From positions 9,853-73,852 of the forward strand of contig CADCOC010000002.1 in NCBI GenBank assembly GCA_902802945.1: DNA of 64,000 bases. Direction: 5' to 3'. Each line of letters starts with the position of its first letter. Position 1 is the stretch's first letter. The position numbers and the translations under genes are program-made. This stretch comes from an uncultured bacterium (GTDB lineage: Bacteria > Verrucomicrobiota > Kiritimatiellia > RFP12 > UBA1067). The notes under the pieces were generated by a model. It did no database searches. It had not been told where the DNA came from and was given only the letters and a program-made list of their open reading frames with translations. This document shows positions 6,020 to 61,940 of the stretch, in pieces.

Positions 6020-6116
6020 TGGCGTACGGTGGCGGTCTTTTAGTTTTTATTCATCCCGTCGCTCCGAGAGCCACTGCACTGCGCGCCCCTAGCCGATTTC
6101 CCGCCCCGCGTTTTTT

Positions 6117-6125
6117 TGGTATACT
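6117..6125 (+). promoter_or_regulatory. Extended -10 TGGTATACT with the ATG only 6 nt downstream, predicting a leaderless transcript
   Basis: 'tttttttggtatactgttgccATG'. There is no SD between the -10 and ATG 6132. Confidence 0.45.
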
Positions 6126-6131
6126 GTTGCC

Positions 6132-10072: not shown

Positions 10073-10171
10073 TCACTTGACTTGGAGAAGGCATGGCCAG
10101 CGGCAGGGCGGCGAAATGGGAGTTTCGTCGGCAGGCAGGTGGCATGGATGATGATAAAAAGGAGCCCAAAC

Positions 10172-33397: not shown

Positions 33398-34042
33398 ATG
33401 CGGCTTTACCATGGATCTAAATCTGGCTTGACGGGGACGATCGCCCCCGTTAGCCGTGATGTCTGCGACTTCGGACGTGGCTTCTACATGGGCACGGAGA
33501 AGACGCAGCCGCTTACGCTCATCTGCCATGGCGAGTCGCCTAAGTTCTACGAGATCGACTATGATCTTGACGGGTTGCGTGTATATCGTTTTGAGGCAAA
33601 CTTGGACTGGGCCATGTTCGTGGTGTGGAACAGACGGGCGATTCCTGAACGGCTCAAGCCGTATTACGACGAAAAGTTCCTGCCAATAGTGCAATCGAAC
33701 GACGTGATTGTCGGCAAGATCGCCAATGACCGCATGGTTGTGGTGTTGGACTGGTTCTTTCAGGGATTCATTTCCGACATCGGACTTCTGGAGTCGCTTC
33801 AGGCGCTTAACCTCGGCGACCAGTACTGCGCAAAGACGGCGGAGGCTTGTACGCGCGTCAGAATCGTGAACGAAAAGTCGCTTTCGCCCAACGAATGCGA
33901 AATGTTGCGCGTCAAATCAGAGAATCAGCGCAAACTCGCCGTAAGGATGGTGGATCGCATCAGGCTCCTCCATCGCCGCGATGGAATGATCTTTCAGGAA
34001 ATCATCGAGCGAGACACGGGGAGGAAATGGGATGAACCTTGA
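33398..34042 (+). CDS. DUF3990 domain protein
   Basis: MRLYHGSKSGLTGTIAPVSRDVCDFGRGFYMGTEKTQPLT matches the DUF3990 N-terminal signature (LYHGS...DFG.GFY). This is the first gene of the low-GC island. Confidence 0.7.
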   Translation: MRLYHGSKSGLTGTIAPVSRDVCDFGRGFYMGTEKTQPLTLICHGESPKFYEIDYDLDGLRVYRFEANLDWAMFVVWNRRAIPERLKPYYDEKFLPIVQSNDVIVGKIANDRMVVVLDWFFQGFISDIGLLESLQALNLGDQYCAKTAEACTRVRIVNEKSLSPNECEMLRVKSENQRKLAVRMVDRIRLLHRRDGMIFQEIIERDTGRKWDEP

Positions 34043-34466
34043 CGTGTTCCAGATGCAGCAATGCGAGAACCAGGGACGGCTCTTCGAGAGCCTTGACCGG
34101 CGTCCCGTCGACGCGAAGGCGTTTATCAAGGCGTTCATGAACTCGCGTGCGGCGGCGGGGCTGGACTCGACCTTCGATCATTTCCAGTGGGCTGGCATCG
34201 AATACATCTACGAGGATGTCGTGGAGGAGTTCAACCTCCAGCCAGATCCGAACCCGCCGCGCTACAACACCGAGGCGCTTTGGTACGGCGGCTATATCAC
34301 GCGCTACTGGCACTATCTCACGGGCGAGACGATGAAGGAAATCTACTCCCAGTGCGATGAGAATCTTCTGCTTCAGTGCTACGGTTTCCATTCCGAAGCC
34401 AACGAATTGGCCATCGAGGACATCAAGGCGATAGCACAAAACAGGATCGGGGATAATATGGTATAA
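34032..34466 (+). CDS. Hypothetical protein with a DUF3791-like C-terminal region. It is a partner of DUF3990 and overlaps it by 11 nt.
   Basis: The C-terminal ...MKEIYSQCDENLLLQCYGFHSEANELAIEDIKAI resembles the DUF3791 pattern seen in the 36681 and 37381 proteins. Confidence 0.45.
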   Translation: MNLDVFQMQQCENQGRLFESLDRRPVDAKAFIKAFMNSRAAAGLDSTFDHFQWAGIEYIYEDVVEEFNLQPDPNPPRYNTEALWYGGYITRYWHYLTGETMKEIYSQCDENLLLQCYGFHSEANELAIEDIKAIAQNRIGDNMV

Positions 34467-34467
34467 T
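34459..34467 (+). promoter_or_regulatory. Extended -10 TGGTATAAT, overlapping the stop of the upstream gene and ahead of the ATPase gene
   Basis: 'ataatatggtataatact', then 'gaaagga' and ATG 34498. Confidence 0.35.
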
Positions 34468-34497
34468 ACTTCCCGGTTTAGAAAGGAATTCTTGCCA

Positions 34498-35802
34498 ATG
34501 GCATGTACAACTCTTACATTGAAATTAGAGAACTACAAGGCGATAAGGGATGCCACCATCGCACTTGATGACATCACTGTACTTTCGGGAGTCAATGCAT
34601 CTGGGAAGAGTACCATTGCTCATGTATTCCACGGTATCATAAACCTCAGCGCAACTTATAATGAATGGGCGATCAGGTCTGCATGGTCAATGCTCGCGCC
34701 GCTCGTATGGGAGATAGCAAGTTTGGTTGGAAGGTTGTCCAATGGGAATGGTTATGAAGGAGGTGCGCTGAACAATGCCATCGTTGATGATTTTGATCGC
34801 AATCTGCTCGTGCGTCCGTATTCCGATACGATCAAGGCCGTGAGTGATGTTTTGTCCAATATCGGAGACCAGATCGTCGCTCGTAAGGAAGATGAAAGTG
34901 CAATAAGGGCTTTTGACGTTTTCCTTAGAAACATCTCTAAGCACAATGAGATATCGGCCGAAAACTATGCCGCACGAGTCAGAAACCTGTTGGGCGAGTC
35001 GCAGGCGAAATACGAGGAATTGATTCGCCAACGTGTTTATACGGCATACAATGTTGCTGCTCCTAAGATGCGCGATTGGCTGATGTTTCCCGGGACAATT
35101 CGTTTTTCAGAGGGCGATACGGTCGTATATCATACGAAGAAGACCCAAACGAGCAATGCCCAGCCGATGTCGGACTTGAAAGAAATCTACGGCGTAAAGA
35201 GGGCAATCTACATTGAGTCGCCGTGGACAAGCATTCCGACACTACAGAAAGACGGGCGGCTTGATATGCACGACGGGTATGTTTATCCTGTCGGGAAATT
35301 GAGTAATCAACCGAAAGCTGGATTGTTTGAAGTCTTAGGCGGTAGCTTGAAAAACGAAGATGGACATTGGCAGTATTTGCGTAAAGATGGCTTGCCGCCT
35401 ATCGACCTTTCAATATGTGCGACCGGCATGAAGGCGCTGTCCATCCTCGAGATTTTGCATGATGGCGGGTATTTGGACGACGACACGCTCTTGATCGTTG
35501 ACGAGCCAGAAGCCCACTTGCACCCGCAATGGGTATTTGAGTATGCCAAGATTCTCGTGGCTTTGAACCGCAAGTACCAAGTGCGCCTGCTCATTACCAG
35601 TCACAATCCCGACATGGTCAACGCCATCAGGACAATAGCAGATGAAGAAGGAGTGGAGGGTTTGCGCTTTTATGTGTCGGAACCCGTCAACGACAGTCCA
35701 TACGATTTCACCTATCGAGACCTTGGGCGCGATATCGAACCGATCTTCGCGACTTTCAACAAGGCGCTTGATAGCATAGAGTCTTACCGGGGGCGCGCTT
35801 GA
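34498..35802 (+). CDS. ABC/AAA_21-type (SMC/RecF-like) ATPase. It is a component of a candidate two-gene defence or abortive-infection-like module.
   Basis: Walker A LSGVNASGKSTI, a signature-like CATGMKALSILEIL, Walker B LLIVDEPEAHLHPQ and an H-loop ITSHNPD. The architecture is typical of defence-island ATPases. Confidence 0.65.
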   Translation: MACTTLTLKLENYKAIRDATIALDDITVLSGVNASGKSTIAHVFHGIINLSATYNEWAIRSAWSMLAPLVWEIASLVGRLSNGNGYEGGALNNAIVDDFDRNLLVRPYSDTIKAVSDVLSNIGDQIVARKEDESAIRAFDVFLRNISKHNEISAENYAARVRNLLGESQAKYEELIRQRVYTAYNVAAPKMRDWLMFPGTIRFSEGDTVVYHTKKTQTSNAQPMSDLKEIYGVKRAIYIESPWTSIPTLQKDGRLDMHDGYVYPVGKLSNQPKAGLFEVLGGSLKNEDGHWQYLRKDGLPPIDLSICATGMKALSILEILHDGGYLDDDTLLIVDEPEAHLHPQWVFEYAKILVALNRKYQVRLLITSHNPDMVNAIRTIADEEGVEGLRFYVSEPVNDSPYDFTYRDLGRDIEPIFATFNKALDSIESYRGRA

Positions 35803-36425
35803 TGCGTATTTTATCGGGACAGGGCGGCAGGATTTTCCTCACGGATGCGATTCACCCAGTATCCAATGAGTGCATTGGGTTGAGGGATGGAATGCAGAAG
35901 ATGTTTGACGAAGGCATTTCCGCGCTTGACACCAATGAAGACCTCGACGAGACCGTGCGTGCTGTCGCACGGAATGACCTTGAACAGGAACGACCCGCCT
36001 GCAATGAAATCGCGGATTCGCTTTATGTGGTCAATGGCGACGCATGGTCGAACCGCATTGACGCCGAGGCCGGCCAGCCCTTTGCCAAATCTGTCGATTT
36101 GCTCGTGCCAGTTGAGGAGGACGGCTCTTCGTCTATCCTGTTTGTCGAGGGCAAGTTGGGGCTTGCACCTCGCGAACGGCGAAGCCGGCTGCGAAATCCG
36201 CGCTATGCCGATGTGGTAGAGAAATACTGCGCGACAAAATCAAAGGTCTGTCGAGAACATCCCGTCATGCTCTGTCGGACAATGAATCTGATCGTGCCAG
36301 CAGCCGTGCGTGAAGTGGCGCGGAACACATTCTCCCGTCGAAACATGACGAATCAAGTTTGCAGCATCATGCCAATTGACGCACGTGGATTCCTTTTCGG
36401 AATTGGAGTGCCAACCGTCAACTAA
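35802..36425 (+). CDS. Hypothetical 207-aa protein translationally coupled to the ATPase (1-nt TGATG overlap). It is the candidate effector subunit.
   Basis: No confident family. It contains an acidic 'SSILFVEGKLG' motif reminiscent of TOPRIM/DUF4276 (ilvEG) motifs, and a C/H-rich CATKSKVCREHPVMLC stretch. Confidence 0.4.
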   Translation: MRILSGQGGRIFLTDAIHPVSNECIGLRDGMQKMFDEGISALDTNEDLDETVRAVARNDLEQERPACNEIADSLYVVNGDAWSNRIDAEAGQPFAKSVDLLVPVEEDGSSSILFVEGKLGLAPRERRSRLRNPRYADVVEKYCATKSKVCREHPVMLCRTMNLIVPAAVREVARNTFSRRNMTNQVCSIMPIDARGFLFGIGVPTVN

Positions 36426-36497
36426 AGAAAGAGGGAAAATTGAAATGAACGGGCGTGCGCGCATCATTCTTCATACTTGTGCTACATGGGTCGAAAA

Positions 36498-36506
36498 TGG
36501 TATAAT
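36498..36506 (+). promoter_or_regulatory. Extended -10 TGGTATAAT upstream of the DUF3791/DUF3990/LRR operon
   Basis: 'aaaatggtataattaaa', then 'gagggaag' and ATG 36533. Confidence 0.4.
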
Positions 36507-36532
36507 TAAAGCCGTCTGAGGGAAGTGACTGA

Positions 36533-36706
36533 ATGAGCGAAGAGGAAAAGAACAATCTATTCTACGTCTGCTCCCTGATCGAGTATGTGGGGCGCAGGAC
36601 CGCAGGACGAAGAACCGTCGCGGCGACGTGGTCGCCGCGATGGACGACGCTTGCCTCAAAAACAAGTCGGAGGTGCTGCCGTGAGCACAACTTCCATAAC
36701 GAATAA
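36533..36706 (+). CDS. Small ORF (57 aa) with a DUF3791-like N-terminus (NLFYVCSLIEYVG). It is possibly a decayed DUF3791 paralog.
   Basis: Good RBS. The C-terminal half is Arg-rich and low-complexity, and it overlaps the next gene. Confidence 0.3.
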   Translation: MSEEEKNNLFYVCSLIEYVGRRTAGRRTVAATWSPRWTTLASKTSRRCCREHNFHNE

Positions 36707-36917
36707 GCGCGAATTGGAATTCGCCGTGTTCTGCATTGAAAACGTCGCTGCAGCTTGTGGAAAGTCGTCAGGCGATGTCTATCGGGCGTTGTCCGGTGAG
36801 GACGGCATCCTTCATCAATACATCGTGCCGAGTTATGATGTTCTTCACACGCAAGGGAAGGACTACATCGTCAACGACATCCGCGAGGTCATGGCGGAGA
36901 GAGGTGTCGTCGTATGA
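36681..36917 (+). CDS. DUF3791 domain protein
   Basis: GTG start after 'ggaggtg'. LEFAVFCIENVAAACGKSSGDVYRALSGEDGILHQYIVPSYDVLHTQGKDYIVNDIREVM is a canonical DUF3791. Confidence 0.7.
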   Translation: MSTTSITNKRELEFAVFCIENVAAACGKSSGDVYRALSGEDGILHQYIVPSYDVLHTQGKDYIVNDIREVMAERGVVV

Positions 36918-37384
36918 TTCTCTACCATGGCGGAGCCGTTGCGATTGCAGCGCCAGATCTCCTACACTCTCGTAGGGCTGTTGACTTTGGCCCTGGATTC
37001 TACGTGACGCCCATATATGATCAAGCGAGAAGGTGGAGCGAAAAACGGAAAAGGCGCTTGGGCGCTGCCGTCGTATCGAAGTATGAGTTTGATGAAGACG
37101 CTGCCGCAAACCTTAAGATTTTGCGGTTCGATTCATATTCCGAGGCATGGCTTGATTTCATCGTAAAATGCCGCGCGATTGAAGATGATTCTGATTGGGA
37201 TGTCGTATCCGGAGGCGTTGCCAATGACAAGGTGTTTGACACGCTTGAAGCATTCTTTGATGGCTTCGCAACGAAAGCTCAGACCATTGACAGGTTGCGG
37301 ATGGAATCGCCAAACATGCAGTATTGCTTTCGAACTCAGGCTGCTTTGGGCATGCTGCATTTCACGGGGAGCGAGCAGATATGA
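36914..37384 (+). CDS. DUF3990 domain protein (second copy)
   Basis: MILYHGGAVAIAAPDLLHSRRAVDFGPGFYVTPIYDQARRWSEKR. It overlaps the upstream gene by 4 nt. Confidence 0.7.
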   Translation: MILYHGGAVAIAAPDLLHSRRAVDFGPGFYVTPIYDQARRWSEKRKRRLGAAVVSKYEFDEDAAANLKILRFDSYSEAWLDFIVKCRAIEDDSDWDVVSGGVANDKVFDTLEAFFDGFATKAQTIDRLRMESPNMQYCFRTQAALGMLHFTGSEQI

Positions 37385-37602
37385 CGGCGAACAAGAACCT
37401 GCTTCGGATGAAATTCGCCCGTGTGATCGAGGCGTATGCCGCCCGCACTGGCTGTTCGCTTGACGAGGCGCTGGATTGCTTCTATCGCTCGCAGACCTAC
37501 GAGTTGATGCGTGATGGCATATCAGACATGCATTGCATGAGCGACGAGTATCTCGTAGATGAATTGATTGATGAAAAAAACTTGAAAGGAACGGGAAAAT
37601 GA
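37381..37602 (+). CDS. DUF3791-like small protein
   Basis: ATGA overlap with the upstream gene. LRMKFARVIEAYAARTGCSLDEALDCFYRSQTYELMRDGISDMHCMSDEYLVDELI follows the DUF3791 pattern. Confidence 0.55.
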   Translation: MTANKNLLRMKFARVIEAYAARTGCSLDEALDCFYRSQTYELMRDGISDMHCMSDEYLVDELIDEKNLKGTGK

Positions 37603-39383
37603 AAAAGGCAATTTTGTTTTTTGCCGCGATGGCGGCAACAATGGCGGCACTCACCGCGCACGCCGATAACTGGACCGATCCCTCAACGGGCATCACGTGG
37701 ACGTACACGGTCAGCAGTGGCAATGCGTCGTTGGGACGTGGGTGGGATTCTCCCGCCGTACCAACCACAACAACTGGCGCATTGACCATCCCATCCACAA
37801 TCAACGGCCATTCCGTGACTAGCATAGGGGAACGTGCGTTCTCTAGTTGCAGTGGGCTTACGAGCGTGATGATACCCGACAGCGTGACGAGCATCGGGCC
37901 TTCTGCGTTCCGCAATTGCAGCGGTCTTACGAACATGACGATACCTGACTCGGTGACGAGCATCGGGGATGGGGCGTTCGATTGTAGTGGATTGACGAAT
38001 GTTACGATACCTGACGGCGTGACGAGCATTGGTAATGAAGCGTTCTTCTATTGCAGCGGTCTTACAAGCGTGACGATACCGGACAGCGTGACGAGCATCG
38101 GGTATCGGGCATTTTCCTACTGTAGCGGGCTTCTGTCTTTTACTGTCGGCGATGGCAATGTAAACTACAAGTCGGTAAACGGCTTGTTGTTGTCTAAGGA
38201 TGACAAGACGCTTATTGCAGGCGTAAATGGCGACGTGATGATACCGGATGGCGTGACGAGTATAGATGATGCGGCGTTTAGCGATCGTAGCGGGCTTACG
38301 AGCGTGACGATACCGAACAGTGTGACAAACATCGGGTATTCTGCGTTCTCCAGCTGCAGCGGTCTTACGAGCGTGACGATACCTGACTGCGTGACGAACA
38401 TCGGTAATGAAGCGTTCAGGGGTTGCAGTGGGCTTAAGAGTGTGAAGATCGGCAACGGCGTTATGAGCATCGGGATTAATGCGTTCTACAATTGCAGCGG
38501 ACTTACGAGCGTGACATTCCTTGGACATCCTCCGCAGGGAGTATCAGATTCCTGCCTGGGTACTTATGCCTGTAGTTTCAAGTGTCCGAGACAATTAGGC
38601 TCTGAATATATCAGTTTATTAGGCAGGTCAAAGTTTTCGGGATTTGTTGAGGACCTGCCATTGACGGTTGTGCAGATTATATCTTCTGGCATTCGCGAAA
38701 ACGATCCGACGGTGATGGATGTGGTATATAAGGTTACGAGCGCAAAACCGACGGTCAAAGTGCGGGCGTTGGCGTTTGAGGATGGCGAGCGGAGTTTTGC
38801 CAAGGTAGTACGTCCGGAAGCATTCGTGAACGACTCCGATGGTAATTCTACGGCGCAGAACATCGGTGATGCGGTTGTGGCCAATGTGCCGCATAAACTT
38901 TCATGGAAAGTGTCGAGCGAATGGGCTACGAGACTTGCAAAGGTGAAGTTCGAGGTGCTGGCGTGTGAGGGCGAACCATTGCGTTTGGAGTTGCGCACGA
39001 TTCCCGCATCAGACCAATACGGCAAGATGAAGATTTCTTGGAATGTTATTTCAGACGCCCAATTTTTGGATGCAATGTTTTGGCTGTATGCTGATAAGGA
39101 TAGTGGATTTAAAGTGGAGAATGGAATCATAAAGCGTACATCGGATAATTTCTTGATGTCCTATGATGGGTGCGCTATCTCGACATTTTCTCGTAATTCT
39201 AGGCAGTATGTCAATGGCGTGCGGAATTACTATGATTTTGCATCCGTTCCAGAGTATGTTTTTGCGAAGATGGGGTATTCTTTGCTTTCGGGCGATACGC
39301 TGACCTACGCCAATCAGGAGACCCGCCTTGGCTTGTCGCCGAGTGGCGCACGCCAATATGCCTACAAGATCGTGGAGGAGTAA
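37599..39383 (+). CDS. Secreted BspA-type leucine-rich-repeat (LRR_5) cell-surface protein with a C-terminal domain of unknown function
   Basis: Signal peptide MKKAILFFAAMAATMAALTAHA. There are more than 10 repeats of IPDSVTSIG..AF..CSGLTSV. The start overlaps the stop of the upstream DUF3791 gene (ATGA). GC is low. Confidence 0.8.
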   Translation: MKKAILFFAAMAATMAALTAHADNWTDPSTGITWTYTVSSGNASLGRGWDSPAVPTTTTGALTIPSTINGHSVTSIGERAFSSCSGLTSVMIPDSVTSIGPSAFRNCSGLTNMTIPDSVTSIGDGAFDCSGLTNVTIPDGVTSIGNEAFFYCSGLTSVTIPDSVTSIGYRAFSYCSGLLSFTVGDGNVNYKSVNGLLLSKDDKTLIAGVNGDVMIPDGVTSIDDAAFSDRSGLTSVTIPNSVTNIGYSAFSSCSGLTSVTIPDCVTNIGNEAFRGCSGLKSVKIGNGVMSIGINAFYNCSGLTSVTFLGHPPQGVSDSCLGTYACSFKCPRQLGSEYISLLGRSKFSGFVEDLPLTVVQIISSGIRENDPTVMDVVYKVTSAKPTVKVRALAFEDGERSFAKVVRPEAFVNDSDGNSTAQNIGDAVVANVPHKLSWKVSSEWATRLAKVKFEVLACEGEPLRLELRTIPASDQYGKMKISWNVISDAQFLDAMFWLYADKDSGFKVENGIIKRTSDNFLMSYDGCAISTFSRNSRQYVNGVRNYYDFASVPEYVFAKMGYSLLSGDTLTYANQETRLGLSPSGARQYAYKIVEE

Positions 39384-39386
39384 GGG

Positions 39387-39480
39387 GCCAAAGAGACAAA
39401 AGGGAGGAACGTGACAAAAGAGACGATAGTGATTGGAGGAGCTGAGGCCAAAGAGGCTTGCAGTCGCTTTTGTCTCTTGG
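39387..39480. repeat. Intergenic cluster of 'CAAAGAGAC' 9-mer repeats forming an inverted repeat (CCAAAGAGACAAAAG ... CTTTTGTCTCTTGG)
   Basis: Read directly at 39389-39403 and 39467-39480. Related 9-mers (GAAGCGACT/AAAGGGACT and their reverse complements) recur at 40201-40304, 41661-41745 and 58364-58391. Confidence 0.6.
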
Positions 39481-39492
39481 AGGGTAATGCCC

Positions 39493-40182
39493 ATGGCTGA
39501 GATACCGAAAATCGTGCTGCCTCATGGCGGCTACCGCAATCTCGTGGCCTACAAAAAGAGCGAAATCGTGTATCAGGGCACGGCGCTCTTCTGTCGCCGC
39601 TTTCTGCCGCCGAATGGCGACCGCACCGTTGACCAGATGCCCCAGGCCGCCCGCAGCTGCAAGCAGAACATCGCCGAAGGCTCGGCCGCAAGCGGTACGT
39701 CGAAGGAAACCGAGCTTAAGCTTACCAACGTCGCGCGGGCAACGCTTGACGAACTGCTGGAAGATTACCTTGATTGGCTCAAGTCACACGGCGAAAGCGA
39801 ATGGACCGCTCGCGACGAGCGCAAGATCAAGGCCCGCGACCTCGGCAAGGAGCACGACGACTGGGAGTTCTGGCAGCCGCTCCTTGAATCGCGTCCGGCG
39901 GAGGTTGTCGCCAACCTGATGATCGTGATCATCTACCAGACGCGCTACCTCCTTGATCGCATGATCGCCTTTCAGGAAGCGGATTTCACGAAACACGGCG
40001 GTGTGCGCGAGCGGATGCACGCCGCCCGCACGGTAGCTCGCGGCGATGAATGGGATAAGGCGATCTACTCGCGGCTCGACGGCGCCGCGAACGCCGCAGA
40101 ACTCGCCGAAAGACTGGCCGAGATCAAACGCCAGGCCGAAAAGGCCGCCTGGGGCATTAGGAAGCGGAGGGGTTGGCAATGA
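39493..40182 (+). CDS. Four-helix-bundle protein (TIGR02436, the '23S rRNA intervening sequence protein' / bAvd-like family) with a C-terminal extension
   Basis: PHGGYRNLVAYKKSEIVYQGTALFCRRFLP...DQMPQAARSCKQNIAEGSA is the family signature. RBS 'ggaggg'. Confidence 0.65.
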   Translation: MAEIPKIVLPHGGYRNLVAYKKSEIVYQGTALFCRRFLPPNGDRTVDQMPQAARSCKQNIAEGSAASGTSKETELKLTNVARATLDELLEDYLDWLKSHGESEWTARDERKIKARDLGKEHDDWEFWQPLLESRPAEVVANLMIVIIYQTRYLLDRMIAFQEADFTKHGGVRERMHAARTVARGDEWDKAIYSRLDGAANAAELAERLAEIKRQAEKAAWGIRKRRGWQ

Positions 40183-42914
40183 GAATTAGAAGGGCGGAAG
40201 AAGCGACGGAAGCGACTAAAGGGACTAAAGCGACGGAAGCGACCAAAGCGACTGCTAGGGGCTTTCGCAGGAGTCGCTTGGGTCTCTTGAGTCTCTTTGG
40301 TCTCTTGATTCCCATGGGGCTTTTTGCCGATATCGTGCATGTTTACGAGCGGTCGCTGGCTGGCGGCGTAGCCAGCCAGATGAGCGACCGTACGCTCGAC
40401 ACCGGCAATACCTACTCAACCCAAAGCGCCCCCGCGAAGAGCGGCTACATCTTCACCCACTGGTCGATTTCGGTTGCGCAGCCAATCGATAACCGCGACC
40501 GTTTGGGTCGGGCGAAAGAAGTTACATCATTCACGCTCTACGAGGAAACCACGCTCACGGCCAACTATCTGGCTGAAGGTGAGGATTCCGACAACGACGG
40601 CATCGCCGACGGCTGGGAAATCTATTGGTATGGCGACCTTTCAAAGAATGCTTCGAGCGATACCGACAACGACGGCTTCACCTTCGCTGAGGAACTCGCG
40701 GCGGGTACCGACCCGCTTATGCCCGACGAATCGCTTCCCGGAGGCATCGTTTGGCAGGATGGCGCGCTTGTGCAGTACAATCCCGACAACCTTCAGCCCT
40801 ATACGATTCGCAGCGAGCCGGAAGGCGCGCTCTTCGCGACGGTAAGAGACTATCTGAAGCCGGGGCAGGTGATACCTATACCATATTCAGGGACACAAGG
40901 AACGCAAGGGACAGGTTTTGCATACTGGACGATCGACGGCGTGCGTCAGGCCGATAGGCACGGAAGGGCGCTTGACACGCTTTCGGTGACGATGCCGAAC
41001 ACTGCAATCGAGATTGTTGCCGTCTCCGAGAGCGACGAGGCGAAGCGCAATTCGCTCTACTGGTACGGCACCGCTTCCGTTGCGCAGAACAGCGACACCG
41101 ACAACGACGGCTTCACCTTTGCCGAGGAACTGGCGGCGGGCACCGATCCGCTAATGCCCGACGAATCGCTTCCCGGAGGCATCGTCTGGCAGGATGGCGC
41201 GCTTTTGGAAATGAACCTCCAGCCCTACGAGCAGGTGCTAGGCGCAGTCGTTGGCGGGGCGTATTCGCAGGTGTTTACTTCGCCAGTCGCTGGCAACGCC
41301 GCCACGAGCGCGACCTTCGGCAACGGCGGCGCCGTGTGGCCGGTGGTGGCCGATGTGAATGGCGATGGGCTGTGGGATTTGGTGGTGTGTTGGGAAGGTG
41401 AAGGGGAAGAGACGCAAGGGACTGCACCGCTTACACAATCGCTGACCATTTTCATCAATGTGGGCACCAAGGGCAACCCCGAGTTTGAGGTTGATGTGAG
41501 CGGCGCGCTCGGCGAGCGCGCCCTACCGTGGCTGGCGATGAACTCGCCCGAGAAGCTTGCCGGGCTTTCGCTCGACGTGCCTGCGCCGGGTGATGCGCTT
41601 TCGGCCACCACCAACGGCACCGCGCTTCTGGTGAGCGATAGCGAGGGCCGAATCTGGTATTATAAAGGGACGCAAGCGACAGAAGCGACTGAAGGGACTT
41701 CACCAACATCCCAGTCGCTTGAGTCTCTTGAGTCTCTTTCGTCGCTTTCCTTCACCCTCCAGCACAAGGTGTGGGGGGGCTCACACGCCGGCTTTGCGCA
41801 GGGGCTACGGCTCGCGGCGGTTGACTGGGATGATGATGGCGATCTCGACTGCCTTGCGGGTACCGCCGACGGCAAGCTGATGCTGTTGCGCGATCCGAAG
41901 GTGGGGCGGCCCACGAACCTGAAGGCGCTCGCTGGCGTGGATAACGTGCTGCTCACGTGGGATCCGAACGCGCAGAGCCGCATCAGGGGGTATAGGGTTT
42001 ATCGTGCGGAGGGGGAAGGAACAGCAAGCGTACAACAACAAGGTGGGGAGTCGACTTCGGGGACTGAGGGCTTTACGCGGATTGCGCAGCCGCAGCTGCC
42101 GACTTACCGCGATTTCCCGAACGGCGGTCACGGGGTGACCGCCCTACCGGAATACGCCTACAAGGTATCATCGGTGAGCCGGTTCTACACCGCCGGCAAC
42201 TCGACGCCCACGGAAACGGAATCGCCCGCGACCGAGGCGGTGACGGCGCGGCTGGGCAGCGTGCGCTTCTTCTGGAACGACGCGGCTACGAAGGTGGGCG
42301 AGCAGTTCGAGGTGATGCTTTCAATAGAAAACTCGATGAACTACTCCGTGACTGGCCAGACTGAGGTGGTTGCCTACGATCCAGAGTATTTGACGCCCGT
42401 GAAGGTGGTGAAAACGGGGCTCACGGAGGAGTGTGTGATTGAAGAGACTCACGGGACGAAAGAGACGCAAGGGACAGGGACGGAAGTGACCGGCGAGTGG
42501 CGGATCACGGTGAGTGGCGCGAGCGGGACAGCAAGCGTACAACAGCAAGGTGGGGCGGTCATTTTGCCGGCTGGCGGCGGGAAGTTCCTTTCGCTCGTTT
42601 TTGAAGCGAAGAAGGAGGGCGTGACGACGGTCGGCGGTCGCGGGGCGACCGCCCTGCCGGCGAGCGATGGGGCGTATGCCACGGTGAGCATTGCGGCGCG
42701 CTCGGTGATCGCGCCCTACCAGCTCGGCGACGTGGATGGCGACGGCGATGTGGATGAGGCCGATTTGCGGCTTCTGGCGAAGCTGTATAGTTCGCAGGGG
42801 GGCGCATCTATCGATGACAATCAGCGCAAGGCAGGCGATTTCAACGGAAACGGTAAGCTCGACAATGCTGATTACCAGGCGTTGAGGGCGTTGTTGAAAG
42901 AAAGGGGACTTTGA
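40179..42914 (+). CDS. Large secreted protein with TSP3-like (DTDNDG) repeats, FG-GAP/VCBS repeats, an Fn3 domain, a cohesin-like domain and a C-terminal type-I dockerin
   Basis: Dockerin DVDGDGDVDEADLRLLAKLY...DFNGNGKLDNADYQALRALL. FG-GAP ADVNGDGLWDLVV and VDWDDDGDLDCLAG. Cohesin-like YDPEYLTPVKVVKTGL. The N-terminal signal anchor is encoded through 9-mer tandem repeats. The gene contains R1, R2 and R3 mini-repeats. Confidence 0.7.
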   Translation: MRIRRAEEATEATKGTKATEATKATARGFRRSRLGLLSLFGLLIPMGLFADIVHVYERSLAGGVASQMSDRTLDTGNTYSTQSAPAKSGYIFTHWSISVAQPIDNRDRLGRAKEVTSFTLYEETTLTANYLAEGEDSDNDGIADGWEIYWYGDLSKNASSDTDNDGFTFAEELAAGTDPLMPDESLPGGIVWQDGALVQYNPDNLQPYTIRSEPEGALFATVRDYLKPGQVIPIPYSGTQGTQGTGFAYWTIDGVRQADRHGRALDTLSVTMPNTAIEIVAVSESDEAKRNSLYWYGTASVAQNSDTDNDGFTFAEELAAGTDPLMPDESLPGGIVWQDGALLEMNLQPYEQVLGAVVGGAYSQVFTSPVAGNAATSATFGNGGAVWPVVADVNGDGLWDLVVCWEGEGEETQGTAPLTQSLTIFINVGTKGNPEFEVDVSGALGERALPWLAMNSPEKLAGLSLDVPAPGDALSATTNGTALLVSDSEGRIWYYKGTQATEATEGTSPTSQSLESLESLSSLSFTLQHKVWGGSHAGFAQGLRLAAVDWDDDGDLDCLAGTADGKLMLLRDPKVGRPTNLKALAGVDNVLLTWDPNAQSRIRGYRVYRAEGEGTASVQQQGGESTSGTEGFTRIAQPQLPTYRDFPNGGHGVTALPEYAYKVSSVSRFYTAGNSTPTETESPATEAVTARLGSVRFFWNDAATKVGEQFEVMLSIENSMNYSVTGQTEVVAYDPEYLTPVKVVKTGLTEECVIEETHGTKETQGTGTEVTGEWRITVSGASGTASVQQQGGAVILPAGGGKFLSLVFEAKKEGVTTVGGRGATALPASDGAYATVSIAARSVIAPYQLGDVDGDGDVDEADLRLLAKLYSSQGGASIDDNQRKAGDFNGNGKLDNADYQALRALLKERGL
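42126..42150 (+). repeat. R1 in-frame palindromic mini-repeat (GGTCACGGGGTGACCGCCCTACCGG), encoding GHGVTALP
   Basis: Family consensus is GGYC(R)(S)rGGGc(K)GRCC-GCCCTRCCG. Other copies are at 42636-42660, 42973-42996, 47245-47317 (an inverted pair) and 48799-48823. Confidence 0.75.
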
Positions 42915-42915
42915 T

Positions 42916-44307
42916 ATGGTGAGAGAGATAGAGATGCGGAATACAACAAGCGTACAACAGCAAGTTGGCGGCGGTCGCGGGGCGACCGCCCTACCGTGGT
43001 GGCGTGTTGCGGCGCGCTCGGGGATCGCGCCCTACCGGTGGTGGGTGGCACTTCTGGCGATGGTTGTTGCGCCGGTGGCGTTGGCCTATCAGGTTTCAGT
43101 GGGCACGTATGTGGCGAATGCGGGGCGGCAAATCACCGTGCCGGTTGCGCTGGATTCGGCGGCGGGGCTTTCCTACGCGAGCGCCACGATTACCTACGAT
43201 CCGCAGGTGCTAGTGGTCACGAAGGCCGAGGCGGGGTCGCTCAAGTCGCTGATGGCGGAGGATTTCGTGGCGGTTGATACGAACGGCATGCTGACGGTCT
43301 CGATCTTCGGTTCGACGGACGCGAACGTTGCAAGCGGCTCCGGCTCGATTGCCAACGTCACGTTCGCGGTGCGCGAAGGGACGGCGGGGCTCTACTCCGA
43401 CTTGGCCGTGAGCAGCGTCGAACTCGGCGAGAAGTCGGGTGTGAAGGATGTCACGGCGGGGAATCCGGTTCAGACAGTGAGCGGAATGGTGCGCGTGATG
43501 GGCGAGACCGCCGAGGTGACGCGTCTGGAGAACGCCGAAATCGTCGTTGCCGATACCGCTTTGGGTGCGCTGTCGCTCAGCGCGGGCGATGCGATTCAGG
43601 CGAGCGATGCGCAAACGGCGATTCGGGTGTCCGGCGCGGTGTCGGCATCGGGCGCAATCGCCGTCAAGGCACCGGCGAACGGATGGGCAAGCGGAACCTA
43701 CGCGCTTCTCTCCACGACCACGGCGGGGTTGGCGTTCAGCCTGGAAGGGGTGGACGGCGCGACGTTCTCCACCGAGACGGCGAATGGCGTGACGACGTAC
43801 TACGCGGCGGTTTCCGTTGCTGGCGAGATTCCCGTGACCTGTGCGGCGGAGGTATTGTCCGCCGGGGCGAAGAACCAGATTCGGTCGCTTCTTGCCGGTC
43901 AGTTGTCCGGCGTGACGGAGATTGTCGTGTCGGGTCCGCAGGGGAATGTGGGCTTGATTGCGGACATGGGCATCGCGCCGTCCTGCACGCGCGACGGAAC
44001 GCGTCTGCTGGCAAACTATACGATGCCGGAACTGCGCATCACGCAGTTCGATCCCAAGACGGGGGCGGTGCGCTTCAAGGTGACGCCCGGCGCTGGCAAT
44101 CAGATCGTTTCTGAAATCGCAACGGGGTACATCCACATGTACGGCACGAACAGCCTGAGCGAGAAGATGAAGTACATCTCGCAGGTCGGATTCGACCTCA
44201 CGCCGTATCTCAAGGCCGAAACCAAGGGCGAGGGTACGCTCTACGTTACCCTCGGCACGCATACTTTCCTGAAAGTCAAGATTGAAGCAGAAGTAAAGGA
44301 AGACTGA
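42916..44307 (+). CDS. Cohesin-domain surface protein (N-terminal signal/TM, then a cohesin module)
   Basis: YQVSVGTYVANAGRQITVPVALDSAAGLSYASATITYDPQVLVV...VTFAVREGTAG is cohesin-like. Its first ~40 codons are built from the R3+R1+R2 repeat units. Confidence 0.6.
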   Translation: MVREIEMRNTTSVQQQVGGGRGATALPWWRVAARSGIAPYRWWVALLAMVVAPVALAYQVSVGTYVANAGRQITVPVALDSAAGLSYASATITYDPQVLVVTKAEAGSLKSLMAEDFVAVDTNGMLTVSIFGSTDANVASGSGSIANVTFAVREGTAGLYSDLAVSSVELGEKSGVKDVTAGNPVQTVSGMVRVMGETAEVTRLENAEIVVADTALGALSLSAGDAIQASDAQTAIRVSGAVSASGAIAVKAPANGWASGTYALLSTTTAGLAFSLEGVDGATFSTETANGVTTYYAAVSVAGEIPVTCAAEVLSAGAKNQIRSLLAGQLSGVTEIVVSGPQGNVGLIADMGIAPSCTRDGTRLLANYTMPELRITQFDPKTGAVRFKVTPGAGNQIVSEIATGYIHMYGTNSLSEKMKYISQVGFDLTPYLKAETKGEGTLYVTLGTHTFLKVKIEAEVKED

Positions 44308-46482: not shown

Positions 46483-49428
46483 ATGACAACAGAAAATACA
46501 ATCACGAAAAACAAGTGTGTGAGAAGTGCTCACGGCAGAGCAGCCATCCTGGCATTAGCCTTAGGGGTTGCGTCATGCGTGTTGGCATACGCCCCTGCGC
46601 CGGTCGTGTTCGATACGCCGGCCAAAGACGAGAAAGGCATCATGGTGCTCGGCAACGGCGAGGTGGGCGCGACCGCGTGGCTGGACGCCGCCGGCACGTT
46701 GCACACCGTGCTGCAGAACTCCGATTCGTGGAACGAGGGCGGACGCCATGTGAAGACCGGCGCGATCGACTACGAGACGAAGTCGCCTGTCGACGCGGGC
46801 ACGTACCGTCAGGAGCTTTCGATGGAACGTGGCGAGTTCGAGGCCACGTGGAAGAGCGGCGGAAGGGCGGTGTCGCTGCGGTACCGCATCCAGCAGGGGA
46901 CGGACTCGATCGCCGTGTGCGACGTGAAGGGCGCGCCGGACGTCGAGGCGAAGGTGATCAACTGGCGTCTCTATCCCGGCGGGTCGAAGGAGTTCGGTGT
47001 CGGCGAGTACGAGCTCGGCAACAGGTTCTGCGAGGGCGGTCCTTTTGGGAAGGTGCTGAGCAAGAAGAAGTTCACCATCAGCGCCGACCGTCTTGTGCCG
47101 GGCGGCTGGTGCCACGTGAACCGCAACGAGACGGTTGCCGACCTGATGAAGGTGTATGACTTCTACCAGGCGACGGGCGATCTCGGCAAGCCGGATTTGC
47201 TTTCGGACCGCGCGTTCGGTGGCGTGACGCGAAAGTATTGCGGCGGTCAGAGGGCTGACCGCCCTACCTCTGGTAACATCGGTTCGGTAGGGCGGTCGCC
47301 CCGCGACCGCCGTACCCTCTTCCTTACCGCGATCACGTGCTATCATCCGTGCAAGGACGCGGACGAATGGCTGCGCCGCACGAACGAGATGCTCGACCGC
47401 GACGGCTGGAACATCGACGGCGAGGAGGCGAAGCGCGCGGCGCACATCGCCTGGTGGCGCACGTTCTGGAACCGCAGCCACATCGCGGTCACGCCGTCCG
47501 AAACGGCGAAGAACGCGCCGCCCAAGCCCTACGACTTTCCCACCAACAGCAAGCTGCCGCTCAGCTTCGGCGTGGATTCCAGGGGCGGCAACAAGTTCCT
47601 CGGAACGTTCGCGTCCGCCGAAGTGTCGTTCGACGGGAAGGTTGTGTATTCGGGCGTCCCGAAGGTGGGAGAGGTTATTGCAACGGGCAAGATGCCCGTT
47701 GTCCCAGTTGCGGGCGAGACGCCCGCCACCCCAGCAACGGGCAAGATGCCCGTTGTCCCAGGTTTTCACTTCAGGTGCAAATTCACGACGGATCATCTTG
47801 AGAAGCCGCAGCGGCTTCTCGACAACATGACGCCCGGCGGAAGCGACGGTTTCATCGTCGACGTCTATCTCGGGCGCCCGCGCGCGATTTTCGGTCCGGT
47901 GCAGATGCACCACTCCTCGAAGATCGCGGCAGGACGCGAGACGACACTCGAGGTGAGCGTGTCGAAGTACGGTACGGCGGAGATCGTCGTGAACGGCAAA
48001 AGTGAGAAGAAGGAGCTGGGGCGTCCCGTCATCCCGCTTGCCGACGAGTGCGCGGCGATCACCACGGCCTACGCCGCGCAGCGCTACCTCACCGCGTGCG
48101 CGTCGCGCGGACGCCTCCCGATCCGCTTCAACGGCACGCTCTTCACGATCTCCCACAGGGGCGATCCCGACTACCGCCGCTGGGGCAACGGCTACTGGTG
48201 GCAGAACACGCGCCTGCCGTACTACCCGATGTTCGCCGCCGGCGACATTGACGGCACCGACGCGCTCTTCGACATGTACTTCGGGAAGCTGGAGTTCTTC
48301 AAGAAGCGCACGAAGAAGTATTTCGGACACGACGGCGCGTACTTCCCCGAGTGCATGCAGCCGTGGGGCGACCACTTCATGGGCTGTTACGGTCCGGAAT
48401 GCGAGTGGAAGTACCGCAAGGACAAGCACCAGTACCATCACTGCCACAAGTACGCATGGGTGGGCCAACTGGAACTCTCGCTCATGGCCATCATGCGCTG
48501 GCAGCACACGCGCGACGATGGATGGTTCAAGAAAAATGCGCTGCCGTCCATCCGCGAGTACGTGCGCTACTTCGACGGACACTTCAAGCTGGACGCGAAG
48601 GGCCGCTATCACATGTACCCCGCGCAGGCGATCGAGACGTGGCAGGACTGCACGAACCCGATGACCGAAGTGGCCGGCCTCACCCGCGTCACGGACCTCC
48701 TCCTCGCGATGCCCGACAACGTGGTCTCGGCGGACGACCACGCGTTCTTCGCGAAGATCCGCGCGCGCCTGCCGGAGCTGCCTACGCGCACGCTCGGCGG
48801 CCAGAGGGCTGGCCGCCCTACCGAGTCGGCGATCGTGTTCGCGCCGGCGGAGATATTCAAGCGCCACGGCAACGTCGAGACGCCGGAGCTCTACTGCGTG
48901 TTCCCGTTCCGTCTCAGCTCGTTCGAGAAGCCGAATGCGGAGATCGGCCGACGCACGTACACCGATGGGCGTTTTCATAAGCTCTACTTCGGCTGGGCGC
49001 AGGACGAGTTGAACGCGGCGTACCTCGGCATGGCGGAGGAGGCGCGCGAGCACATCGTCGACCGCGTGTTCAAGAACACGCCCACGCTTGGCCGGACGAT
49101 CGCCTGCAACGAGGAGAACATCGCCGAGCGCGCGTACAGGCCCTCCGAATATCGCTGGCCGGCGTACTGGGGCCCGAACTACAACTGGCGTCCCGACCAG
49201 GACGAGGGCGGCGTGTTCCAGAACACGATCCAGTCGATGCTCCTGCAGTACGAGGGCGACAAAATCTTCCTCCTGCCTGCGTGGCCGAAGGAGTGGAACT
49301 GCGACTTCAAGCTCAACGCCCCCGGTAACACCACCGTCGAGGGCCGCGTGGAGAACGGCGAGCTGAAGGATCTTGTCGTGACGCCCGCCTTCCGCCGCGC
49401 CGACGTGGTCAACGCCGCAGTGCGATAG
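46483..49428 (+). CDS. GH95-like (DUF5703 / alpha-L-fucosidase-family six-hairpin) glycoside hydrolase
   Basis: The N-terminal MVLGNGEVGATAWLDAAGTLHTVLQNSDSWNEGG parallels the GH95 LGNGrlGa...LNedtlW motif. The gene contains R1 copies and an R6 duplicated 27-mer at 47680-47761. Confidence 0.5.
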   Translation: MTTENTITKNKCVRSAHGRAAILALALGVASCVLAYAPAPVVFDTPAKDEKGIMVLGNGEVGATAWLDAAGTLHTVLQNSDSWNEGGRHVKTGAIDYETKSPVDAGTYRQELSMERGEFEATWKSGGRAVSLRYRIQQGTDSIAVCDVKGAPDVEAKVINWRLYPGGSKEFGVGEYELGNRFCEGGPFGKVLSKKKFTISADRLVPGGWCHVNRNETVADLMKVYDFYQATGDLGKPDLLSDRAFGGVTRKYCGGQRADRPTSGNIGSVGRSPRDRRTLFLTAITCYHPCKDADEWLRRTNEMLDRDGWNIDGEEAKRAAHIAWWRTFWNRSHIAVTPSETAKNAPPKPYDFPTNSKLPLSFGVDSRGGNKFLGTFASAEVSFDGKVVYSGVPKVGEVIATGKMPVVPVAGETPATPATGKMPVVPGFHFRCKFTTDHLEKPQRLLDNMTPGGSDGFIVDVYLGRPRAIFGPVQMHHSSKIAAGRETTLEVSVSKYGTAEIVVNGKSEKKELGRPVIPLADECAAITTAYAAQRYLTACASRGRLPIRFNGTLFTISHRGDPDYRRWGNGYWWQNTRLPYYPMFAAGDIDGTDALFDMYFGKLEFFKKRTKKYFGHDGAYFPECMQPWGDHFMGCYGPECEWKYRKDKHQYHHCHKYAWVGQLELSLMAIMRWQHTRDDGWFKKNALPSIREYVRYFDGHFKLDAKGRYHMYPAQAIETWQDCTNPMTEVAGLTRVTDLLLAMPDNVVSADDHAFFAKIRARLPELPTRTLGGQRAGRPTESAIVFAPAEIFKRHGNVETPELYCVFPFRLSSFEKPNAEIGRRTYTDGRFHKLYFGWAQDELNAAYLGMAEEAREHIVDRVFKNTPTLGRTIACNEENIAERAYRPSEYRWPAYWGPNYNWRPDQDEGGVFQNTIQSMLLQYEGDKIFLLPAWPKEWNCDFKLNAPGNTTVEGRVENGELKDLVVTPAFRRADVVNAAVR
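47245..47317 (+). repeat. Composite R1 element: two R1 units in inverted orientation (GGTCAGAGGGCTGACCGCCCTACC ...17 nt... GGTAGGGCGGTCGCCCCGCGACC), in-frame inside the GH95-like gene
   Basis: Read directly. The second half is the exact reverse complement of the 42973-type unit. It encodes GGQRADRPTSGNIGSVGRSPRDRR. Confidence 0.75.
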
Positions 49429-56568: not shown

Positions 56569-56643
56569 TGGCAGCCCCTAGGAGAGTCGAACTCCTCTTC
56601 TCAGGATGAGAACCTGATGTCCTAGCCGATAGACGAAGGGGCC
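56569..56643 (-). tRNA. tRNA-Glu (anticodon CTC)
   Basis: GGCCCCTTCGTCTATCGGCTAGGACATCAGGTTCTCATCCTGAGAAGAGGAGTTCGACTCTCCTAGGGGCTGCCA is a cloverleaf with anticodon loop TTCTCAT and an encoded CCA. It closely resembles E. coli tRNA-Glu. There is a G1-U72 wobble. Confidence 0.85.
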
Positions 56644-56647
56644 AGCC

Positions 56648-56732
56648 TGGTGCACCCGGTGGGATTTGAACCCACACACCTTGCGGCACTAGAACCTGAA
56701 TCTAGCGTGTATGCCAATTTCACCACGGGTGC
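56648..56732 (-). tRNA. tRNA-Leu (anticodon CAG)
   Basis: GCACCCGTGGTGAAATTGGCATACACGCTAGATTCAGGTTCTAG...GGGTTCAAATCCCACCGGGTGCACCA has a long variable arm and an encoded CCA. Confidence 0.85.
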
Positions 56733-61623: not shown

Positions 61624-61707
61624 GGGCGCGTGGTGAAATGGCAGACACGCTGGATTTAGGTTCCAGTTCCGCAAGGAGTGGGGGTTCAAGTCCCCCCGCG
61701 CCCACCA
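61624..61707 (+). tRNA. tRNA-Leu (anticodon TAG)
   Basis: GGGCGCGTGGTGAAATGGCAGACACGCTGGATTTAGGTTCCAG...GGGGGTTCAAGTCCCCCCGCGCCCACCA has a long variable arm. Confidence 0.85.
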
Positions 61708-61729
61708 TCAAATTTCAATCGCCAGGTGC

Positions 61730-61758
61730 TTGACGGCGGGGCGGGGACTTGGTAAACT
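61730..61758 (+). promoter_or_regulatory. Sigma70 promoter TTGACG-N17-(TG)TAAACT upstream of tRNA-Ser
   Basis: Read directly. The extended -10 TGGTAAACT is identical to the one before the giant gene. Confidence 0.5.
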
Positions 61759-61774
61759 ATTCCCCGCTTTCCAC

Positions 61775-61864
61775 GGAGAGGTGGCAGAGCCTGGTTGAAT
61801 GCACATGACTCGAAATCATGCATACCGCAAGGTATCGGGGGTTCGAATCCCTCCCTCTCCGCCA
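61775..61864 (+). tRNA. tRNA-Ser (anticodon CGA)
   Basis: GGAGAGGTGGCAGAGCCTGGTTGAATGCACATGACTCGAAATCATG...GGGGGTTCGAATCCCTCCCTCTCCGCCA has a long variable arm. Confidence 0.8.
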
Positions 61865-61866
61865 AG

Positions 61867-61940
61867 GCGGGCGTAATTCAATGGCAGAATAGGAGCTTCC
61901 CAAGCTTCTTACGTGGGTTCGATTCCCATCGCCCGCTCCA
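61867..61940 (+). tRNA. tRNA-Gly (anticodon CCC), followed by a T7 run
   Basis: GCGGGCGTAATTCAATGGCAGAATAGGAGCTTCCCAAGCTTCTTACGTGGGTTCGATTCCCATCGCCCGCTCCA. Confidence 0.85.

Follow-up and report, generated by a model that had tools for sequence, protein, structure and literature searches.

A conserved gene pair for dockerin- and cohesin-bearing, predicted surface proteins in uncultured Kiritimatiellae

The cohesin-dockerin systems most similar to the one described here are the type I pairs of cellulosomes, represented by Clostridium cellulolyticum CipC Coh1 (1g1k, 2vn5), Acetivibrio cellulolyticus ScaB Coh6-DocCel5 (5nrk) and C. thermocellum modules (1ohz, 2ccl), and the non-cellulosomal systems of Archaeoglobus fulgidus (2xdh), ANME archaea (PMC9012536) and the C. 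perfringens glycosidase complexes (2jh2, 2ozn), in which modules are few per genome and unconnected with cellulose degradation. Pairs from archaea are known to function (PMC9705933, PMC9012536), and the pair of A. fulgidus has been used for display (PMC9705933). In the rumen, cohesins and dockerins encoded on the same contig in diverse, little-studied taxa bind each other by enzyme-linked immunosorbent assay and native polyacrylamide gel electrophoresis (PMC6487960), and a study of metagenome-assembled genomes (MAGs) from the camel rumen detected cohesins in the Firmicutes alone (PMC9177762). Here we describe two adjacent genes, A and B, in 64,000 nucleotides of contig CADCOC010000002.1 (the window) from an uncultured bacterium of the Kiritimatiellia. 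Gene A encodes a predicted secreted, adhesin-like protein with a cohesin (CohA) and a dockerin at its C-terminus, and gene B a predicted secreted protein with a single cohesin (CohB) and a distinct C-terminal domain (CTD). Our search of the literature found no paper connecting Kiritimatiellae with cohesins. On balance it is probable, judging from sequence and models, that A and B form a two-gene cassette in which protein A docks in a Ca2+-dependent manner onto protein B, and B is kept at the envelope through its CTD. Because non-cellulosomal cohesin-dockerin pairs are already established, the A-B pair adds one more case to a principle of assembly that was known before, and its interest lies in the strict pairing of the genes, in the constant tail and variable head of the cassette, in a CTD that is lineage-specific and in a host that is diderm.

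The modules of A and B resemble those of cellulosomal type I pairs by hidden Markov model (HMM), by profile and by predicted fold. Unlike a cellulosome, however, the A-B system has no multi-cohesin scaffoldin, no carbohydrate-binding module and no dockerin-bearing enzyme; each protein carries one cohesin, no catalytic domain is found on the dockerin protein, and the glycosidase-like neighbour genes carry no dockerin. As cargo the system has A, integrin-like and non-catalytic; its host is a diderm bacterium of the Planctomycetes-Verrucomicrobia-Chlamydiae group; and the binding is predicted from sequence and models. With the non-cellulosomal systems, A-B shares the small number of modules and the lack of a cellulose link, and differs in phylum, in cargo, in its multi-copy occurrence, in the constant tail with variable heads, and in the lineage-specific CTD. 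The A. fulgidus cohesin 2xdh is among the best fold matches to CohB (E 3.5e-10), and in that archaeon a protein with both cohesin and dockerin is presumably encoded beside a cohesin protein.

Genes A and B occupy 40179-44307 of the window as same-strand open reading frames (ORFs), and all of their features given below lie on the forward (+) strand. Gene A (40179..42914) encodes 911 amino acids (aa) from an ATG at 40179, or 913 aa from a TTG at 40173; the public protein P0122 is 100% identical to its product, with 911 aa and a start at the 40179 ATG. The TGA stop of gene A is followed by one base and then by the ATG of gene B (42916..44307, 463 aa), which has a purine-rich stretch immediately upstream. 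The adjacency of the two genes reported in the first-pass annotation is thus confirmed, and the cassette is probably translationally coupled. A promoter and terminator scan of 37-47 kb gave no more sites than shuffled sequence, and an Rfam scan found tRNAs only. More than 250 homologues of gene A occur in Kiritimatiellae MAGs, the named homologues of both proteins come from such MAGs, and the genome loci recovered derive from bins of cattle rumen, sheep rectum and water-buffalo caecum. As separate observations, a contig binned as Barnesiella intestinihominis (a Bacteroidota MAG; L014, 1281-1719) has short fragments matching the end of CohA and, at 83% identity, the final 35 residues of B, which could be misbinning or a transferred remnant. 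A 249-aa gene at 39433-40182 overlaps the start codon of gene A (ATGA); its likeness to PF05635, the family of 23S rRNA intervening-sequence proteins, is weak (21.9 bits, under the cut-off), and it is missing from the orthologous loci examined.

The type I dockerin of A (42720..42911) has two intact Ca2+ loops and three helices. The Pfam model Dockerin_1 (PF00404) matches aa 851-906 with 28.8 bits against a cut-off of 22.9, and the module matches the solved dockerins 2ccl_B, 1ohz_B, 5nrk_B and 8x39. Loop 1 reads D853-V-D-G-D-G-D-V-D-E-A-D864 and loop 2 D889-F-N-G-N-G-K-L-D-N-A-D900, with D or N at positions 1, 3, 5, 9 and 12 of both, and these Ca2+-ligand positions are invariant or nearly so in an alignment of 33 homologues. 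The helices span residues 862-873, 882-888 and 898-910 (predicted local distance difference test, pLDDT, 76-88), and, as in cellulosomal type I dockerins, a helix follows each loop (862-873 and 898-910). The first-pass description of a canonical type I dockerin with two DxDGDGxxDxxD segments therefore stands as to the intact loops, but loop 2 has the form DxNGNG. Among homologues, segment 1 is variable (DE, DK, TK or TR at positions 10-11) and segment 2 is nearly invariant (NA). Comparison of the segments found no internal two-fold symmetry of the recognition residues, so the dual binding mode of cellulosomal dockerins is unlikely here and a single mode is suggested; such symmetry is no requirement for belonging to the family. 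When the dockerin by itself was used as query, the matches were all short fragments from the C-termini of A-type proteins, a result that is uninformative on other carriers, such as enzymes.

CohB, the type-I-like cohesin of B (43087..43503), is matched by the Pfam Cohesin model (PF00963) over aa 59-167 with 47.1 bits against a cut-off of 24.1, and its family profile matches the type I cohesins 1g1k, 2vn5 and 5nrk with E values of about 1e-8. In the model of B (pLDDT 83.8, predicted template-modelling score 0.74), the cohesin domain has a pLDDT of 85-93 and forms the nine-stranded jelly-roll of cohesins, superposing on 1g1k with a Foldseek E of 7e-11, a template-modelling (TM) score of 0.80 and a root-mean-square deviation of 2.7 Å. 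Domain HMM scans had been proposed as a check on the putative cohesins, and for CohB, which is over the cut-off, a failure to match cohesin HMMs or structures was not observed. CohA (42240..42710) is a divergent cohesin with three in-frame repeat inserts. It scores 17.0 bits with the same Pfam model, below the cut-off, and the insert-free orthologue P0147 scores 28.6, above it. Its profile matches the type II cohesin dyad 3l8q in the Protein Data Bank (PDB; E 5e-4), its best sequence match, which the depositors named "scaffoldin adaptor protein B", and aligns to that of CohB (hhalign 82%, E 1e-5). Foldseek matches the modelled fold of CohA to over 30 cohesins of solved structure (probability 1.00, TM 0.60-0.67, E 5e-6), with a pLDDT of 75-88 outside the inserts; the cohesin-like module annotated in gene A is on these grounds judged real. 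The order of cohesin then dockerin on one polypeptide recalls adaptor scaffoldins, such as A. cellulolyticus ScaA/ScaB and those of rumen metagenomes (PMC6487960), but A has a single divergent cohesin and consists mostly of adhesin-type domains.

Homologous loci were gathered by exact-protein look-ups and by pattern scans of genome and metagenome collections, and were scored with family-specific HMMs. Pairing was counted over those B genes that are free-standing and independent and have 1 kb or more of flank upstream. In every such locus, all on rumen or gut Kiritimatiellae contigs (17/17), B begins at the end of an A-type gene whose product terminates in a dockerin, and the two reading frames abut or overlap in loci other than the window. 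The genes downstream vary by locus, being DUF6259 and GH95-like in the window and HZS_alpha/GH28 or PIN/MazE elsewhere, and a BspA-type leucine-rich repeat (LRR) gene upstream is frequent, not universal. About 350 kb of related loci held no dockerin beyond those of A-type proteins. The first-pass annotation had taken a side-by-side pair outside the cellulolytic clostridia to suggest a dedicated scaffold-ligand pair; a dedicated and conserved unit it is, but such pairs outside those clostridia are not in themselves unusual. The strict pairing also bears on whether these modules interact at all. Many non-cellulosomal dockerin-like and cohesin-like modules are said to have no demonstrated partner, as Peer and colleagues reportedly set out in 2009, and the modules of A and B might likewise be structural leftovers, the dockerin a Ca2+-stabilised terminal domain and the cohesins beta-sandwich spacers. 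The tolerance of insertions by the cohesin of A fits such a reading, which is nonetheless very unlikely given that all Ca2+ ligands are intact, that conservation is strong in the second dockerin segment and in CohB, and that the pairing itself holds strictly across the loci.

The conserved unit extends beyond the gene boundary. Contig L006 carries two cassettes that have in common a 2.05-kb block, from the start of CohA through B, at 97-99.7% nucleotide identity and with identical dockerins and cohesins, behind 5' parts of the A genes that are unrelated, one of them with a LamG domain. The unit thus combines a constant CohA-Doc-B tail with a variable head. Across 17 pairs, dockerin divergence correlates with that of CohB (r 0.77), and weakly with that of the B C-terminal region (r 0.34); given the latter, the partial correlation of dockerin and CohB is 0.74 (permutation p 6e-4). 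In locus L003, the dockerin and CohB are 43% and 51% identical to the window copies and the B C-terminal region 78%, a joint divergence that fits matched partners. Dockerin divergence correlates with that of CohA as well (r 0.71; partial r 0.67 given the B C-terminal region, p 4e-4), and this opens the possibility of head-to-tail self-assembly, in which the dockerin of one A would bind the CohA of another to give dimers or daisy-chain fibres, with B as a cap or anchor. In every A-type protein the cohesin lies directly upstream of the dockerin, and CohA is related to CohB. In 2008, Haimovitz and colleagues reportedly saw a single A. fulgidus dockerin bind both cohesins of that genome. We regard self-assembly as unlikely, since CohA has a mean pairwise identity of 54% versus 73% for CohB, and tolerates three repeat insertions in the window copy, whereas the second dockerin segment is nearly invariant; moreover, the partial correlation of dockerin with CohA given CohB is 0.32, versus 0.51 for dockerin with CohB given CohA. 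Such assembly would be compatible with, and not exclusive of, docking of A onto B.

Protein B begins with a signal peptide (42916..43086), identified by alignment of homologues, with the hydrophobic (h-) region VALLAMVVAPVALA. Homologues start with MK.., have an h-region of 12-14 residues and conserve an A|YQ site, and the N-terminal hydrophobic stretch is for these reasons read as a Sec signal peptide. In the window copy the n-region is extended to about 40 aa by two REP-like (repetitive extragenic palindromic) hairpin elements and a 26-nt repeat; aa 1-37 have a pLDDT below 50, and a helix spans residues 40-55. A transmembrane anchor was rejected on account of the conserved A|YQ site and of the short h-region, which is only about 14 residues long. 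Of the transmembrane-anchored cohesin proposed for 42916, then, the cohesin is upheld and the anchor gives way to a signal peptide. CohB is followed by a beta-rich middle region (43504..43920; pLDDT 86-96) and by the CTD (43921..44289), a domain of about 125 aa.

The CTD is a candidate sorting or anchoring domain, a reading that derives from its position. No Pfam or NCBIfam family matches aa 196-463 of B, and for the CTD itself there was no match in Pfam (E up to 10) or NCBIfam (E up to 1), with the type IX secretion system (T9SS) CTD, PEP-CTERM, SLH and LPXTG signals excluded; its profile gave a single, spurious match in the PDB, to a designed protein. A full HMMER search with aa 197-463 matched 113 clusters among 1.84 billion representative proteins. 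In the proteins longer than B, the match to the last ~125 residues always lies at the extreme C-terminus, for instance at 6008-6158 of 6161 aa, 1583-1712 of 1720 and 656-797 of 798. Two groups of carriers were identified, BspA-type LRR proteins (P0298, P0320, P0337, P0344, P0353 and P0331) and an S8 subtilase, P0241, of 2,228 aa, which has the whole module of cohesin, middle region and CTD at its C-terminus. An ORF of locus L012 is a member of the P0241 cluster (L012/L026, 454-5388), and this subtilase also carries PPC and Listeria-Bacteroides repeats. The occurrence of the cohesin and CTD fused to an S8 protease, and of the CTD alone at the end of many BspA-LRR proteins, fits an attachment module, and the subtilase cohesin is a second possible socket for the dockerin. 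Because the CTD ends diverse large secreted proteins, it behaves like a sorting or anchoring domain, and B resembles an anchoring scaffoldin. Anchoring scaffoldins (SdbA, OlpA/OlpC, ScaE) combine a cohesin with an SLH or sortase signal, and B is likewise small, with one cohesin and then a C-terminal module common to surface proteins; the best fold matches of CohB include the OlpA/OlpC cohesins (3ul4, 4dh2). The CTD of B differs in being none of SLH, LPXTG, T9SS-CTD or PEP-CTERM. Two further candidates were rejected: an outer-membrane beta-barrel, as the strands of the CTD have 3-8 residues and a terminal aromatic residue is absent, and the upstream BspA-LRR protein of the window as a CTD carrier, as it gave no match.

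In the mechanism that we propose, A and B would both be exported by Sec signal peptides, and the C-terminal type I dockerin of A would fold around two Ca2+ ions and plug into the type-I-like cohesin with which mature B begins. This contact would probably have a single orientation, since the second dockerin segment alone is nearly invariant, and would be dominated by that segment (AGDFNGNGKLDNADYQALR). Protein B would hold the complex at the cell envelope via its CTD, and the CohA-Doc-B tail would serve as a constant attachment module. The variable head of A, with its B-repeats, TSP3 Ca2+ linkers, FG-GAP region and Fn3 domain, is most likely an adhesin, for a ligand that may be host, plant or microbial.

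A number of points weigh against the docking of A onto B. Because A has its own cohesin beside the dockerin, the dockerin could instead bind CohA, either in cis or in trans, and dockerin divergence also tracks CohA, as given above. Furthermore, CohA, Doc and CohB lie next to one another on the DNA, and recombination of this stretch in blocks, instead of co-adaptation, could account for their joint divergence. On the side of docking, the 64-kb window has A as its sole dockerin carrier and A and B as its sole cohesin carriers; the rest of the genome was left unsearched for further dockerins. The CTD has no known fold or family in Pfam, NCBIfam or the PDB. Kiritimatiellae have an outer membrane, and no route of A or B across it was identified in the analysis. 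Finally, locus L005 (1-7031) has an A-type dockerin gene, a 731-aa FGE-sulfatase-domain gene and a 755-aa FG-GAP-cohesin-dockerin gene, followed by the usual LRR, A and B genes, such that one dockerin gene does not have B as its next gene.

The L005 dockerin genes without B next to them, together with the cohesin and CTD of the S8 protease (P0241/L012), a second such carrier, raise the question of whether A and B are co-expressed without binding each other, their dockerin and cohesins recognising partners encoded elsewhere and B acting as a general socket. In addition, paralogous cassettes in one genome share identical dockerins and cohesins, and there is therefore no pair-specific discrimination between them. 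Against this stand the abutting reading frames at all 17 loci, the joint replacement of the CohA-Doc-CohB block in L003, and the lack of dockerins other than A-type in the roughly 350 kb of related loci, and we hold partners elsewhere to be improbable as the explanation of the cassette.

The head of A begins with an N-terminal extension and signal-peptide h-region (40179..40328; ..RRSRLGLLSLFGLLIPMGLFA|DIV), placed by homologue alignment and model. This segment is encoded by a long hairpin of 9-nt tandem units and has a pLDDT below 50 over aa 1-51; homologues free of the repeat align ordinary signal peptides at the same position. An InlB-B-repeat-like beta domain follows (40332..40577), all-beta in the model with a pLDDT of about 90. 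The Pfam model Flg_new_2 gives it 20.4 bits against a cut-off of 23.6, and gives the orthologue P0147 40.2 bits, over the cut-off. Next is a TSP3 calcium-binding linker (40578..40772), then a second InlB-B-repeat-like domain (40788..41030; homologue alignment, with model strands at aa 208-285) and a second TSP3 linker (41070..41207; Pfam, repeat search and alignment). TSP3_bac reaches 49.6 bits over three stretches of gene A, above its curated Pfam cut-off. Each linker holds one copy of a direct repeat, 40656-40772 and 41091-41207, of 117 nt and 92% identity, which codes for the TSP3 linker (SDTDNDGFTFAEELAAGTDPLMPDESLPGGIVWQDGAL) after each B-repeat domain. Most homologues have three B-repeat/TSP3 units and gene A has two, and compared with the 91%-identical relative P0121 gene A is short by exactly one 137-aa unit. 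From this difference in unit number it follows that the repeat is a module duplication whose copy number has been changed by recombination. The internal repeat of the earlier description is thus present, but it measures 117 nt at 92% identity rather than 112 nt, and is merely such a duplication.

The FG-GAP or integrin-alpha-like region of A (41220..41906) was delimited by FG-GAP_3, Foldseek and invariant columns. FG-GAP_3 scores 16.3 bits against a cut-off of 26.9, and PF13517 is recorded in many homologues; the model of A matches integrin alpha ectodomains with a Foldseek E of 1e-7 and a low TM score, the region having a pLDDT of about 50, and repeats are inserted in-frame within its loops. 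The best-conserved stretch of the protein, LQHKVWGGS..DWDDDGDLDC..LLRDPKVG (about aa 529-578), is in the C-terminal part of this region and runs into the start of an Fn3-like beta sandwich (41907..42230; strands at aa 581-683). The latter scores 18.3 bits with fn3 (PF00041; E 0.003, cut-off 25), over its first half only as an insert interrupts the domain, and matches the FnIII pair 6tpv by Foldseek (E 2e-5). The AlphaFold model of A has a mean pLDDT of 67, and of 75-93 in the domains. Because the scores of P0147, the profile matches and the AlphaFold/Foldseek matches agree, the modules of A that fall below threshold are judged likely to be real; all those first named for gene A (FG-GAP, TSP3, Fn3, cohesin and dockerin) are therefore retained, with FG-GAP, fn3 and Cohesin below cut-off in the window copy. 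The putative FG-GAP region followed by an Fn3-like domain, together with Ca2+-binding TSP3 repeats, recalls the arrangement of FG-GAP and Ig/Fn3-like domains in bacterial FG-GAP/VCBS-TSP3 adhesins and in integrin alpha, although the propeller region of A has low model confidence. Membership in the Amuc_1099 pilus-like family was rejected at 27.7 bits against a cut-off of 50, the match being to the TSP3 motif alone.

The inserts in A and B belong to a set of REP-like elements, each 26-27 nt long. With at most one mismatch allowed, the window has 8 matches to the pattern GGCG-N13-CGCCCTACC, against 0.25 expected, all of them inside ORFs. Elements lie in-frame in three genes, namely A and B (41502-41527, 42123-42148, 42633-42658, 42695-42720, 42970-42995 and 43011-43036) and the downstream GH95-like gene (47242-47268, 47286-47311 (-) and 48796-48822). 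Each is built of a 9-bp GC-rich stem with a loop of 3-4 nt and then CCCTACC, so that the opposite strand reads GGTAG plus a hairpin, as in REP elements, and the differences between stems are compensatory. The peptides that the elements encode (GRGATALP, HGVTALP, ARSVIAPY) are polymorphic inserts, carried by some homologues and lacking from others at matching alignment positions, and they fall in loops with a pLDDT below 50. Among known elements, the in-frame Rickettsia palindromic elements come closest (PMC10969869), and no report of in-frame REP-like elements in Kiritimatiellae was found in the literature. A second class comprises long hairpins of 9-nt tandem units at 40200-40310 and 41664-41748, and also at 42440-42478, in which N copies of AAGCGACNG are followed by N copies of the inverted unit AGTCNCTTG (z about -3.7) and are translated in-frame as TEATKGTKATEAT...SLESLESL. 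The hairpin at 40200-40310 (-55 kcal/mol, z -3.7) encodes the n-region and part of the h-region of the gene A signal peptide. A 27-nt hairpin unit (GCAACGGGCAAGATGCCCGTTGTCCCA) is present three times at 47680-47761, inside the GH95-like gene (46483..49428), where it is translated as GKMPVVP repeats and folds at -51.8 kcal/mol (z -7.4). A tentative possibility, on the doubtful side, is that the whole constitutes a lineage-specific modular surface display, in which the CTD would be a new sorting signal, interchangeable heads would be plugged on or chained via CohA, and REP-like inserts and the gain and loss of repeat units would diversify the loops.

Elsewhere in the window, a low-GC island (34000-40000; 51-53% versus about 63%) lies immediately upstream of gene A. 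It encodes an AAA_15/ABC-type ATPase (34492..35802), like the defence ATPases AriA, NsnB and Old, overlapped by a 208-aa partner gene without a family match. The island further includes a DUF3990 gene (another is found just upstream, at 33398..34042), the BspA-LRR gene (37599..39383) and small ORFs that lack annotation, and has the look of an insertion of variable or defence type. A giant ORF at 10082-24685 encodes another very large surface-type protein, of 4,867 aa, with BspA LRR, Listeria-Bacteroides repeat, PKD, CarboxypepD_reg, CARDB and DUF7619 domains and no dockerin, cohesin or CTD. Two tRNAs are clustered at 56572-56732 (-) and three at 61624-61937 (+).

Kiritimatiellae are abundant, mostly uncultured polysaccharide degraders of the rumen and hindgut. 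A multi-copy dockerin and cohesin cassette with variable adhesin-like heads provides a testable model of how their surface is organised, and bears on their attachment to particles, mucus or other cells. The cohesin-dockerin principle would thereby extend to a bacterium with an outer membrane, and the CTD common to several of its surface proteins is a candidate new sorting or anchoring signal. The A-B pair could, in addition, find use as an orthogonal cohesin-dockerin tool, with the divergent L003 allele as a natural control of specificity.

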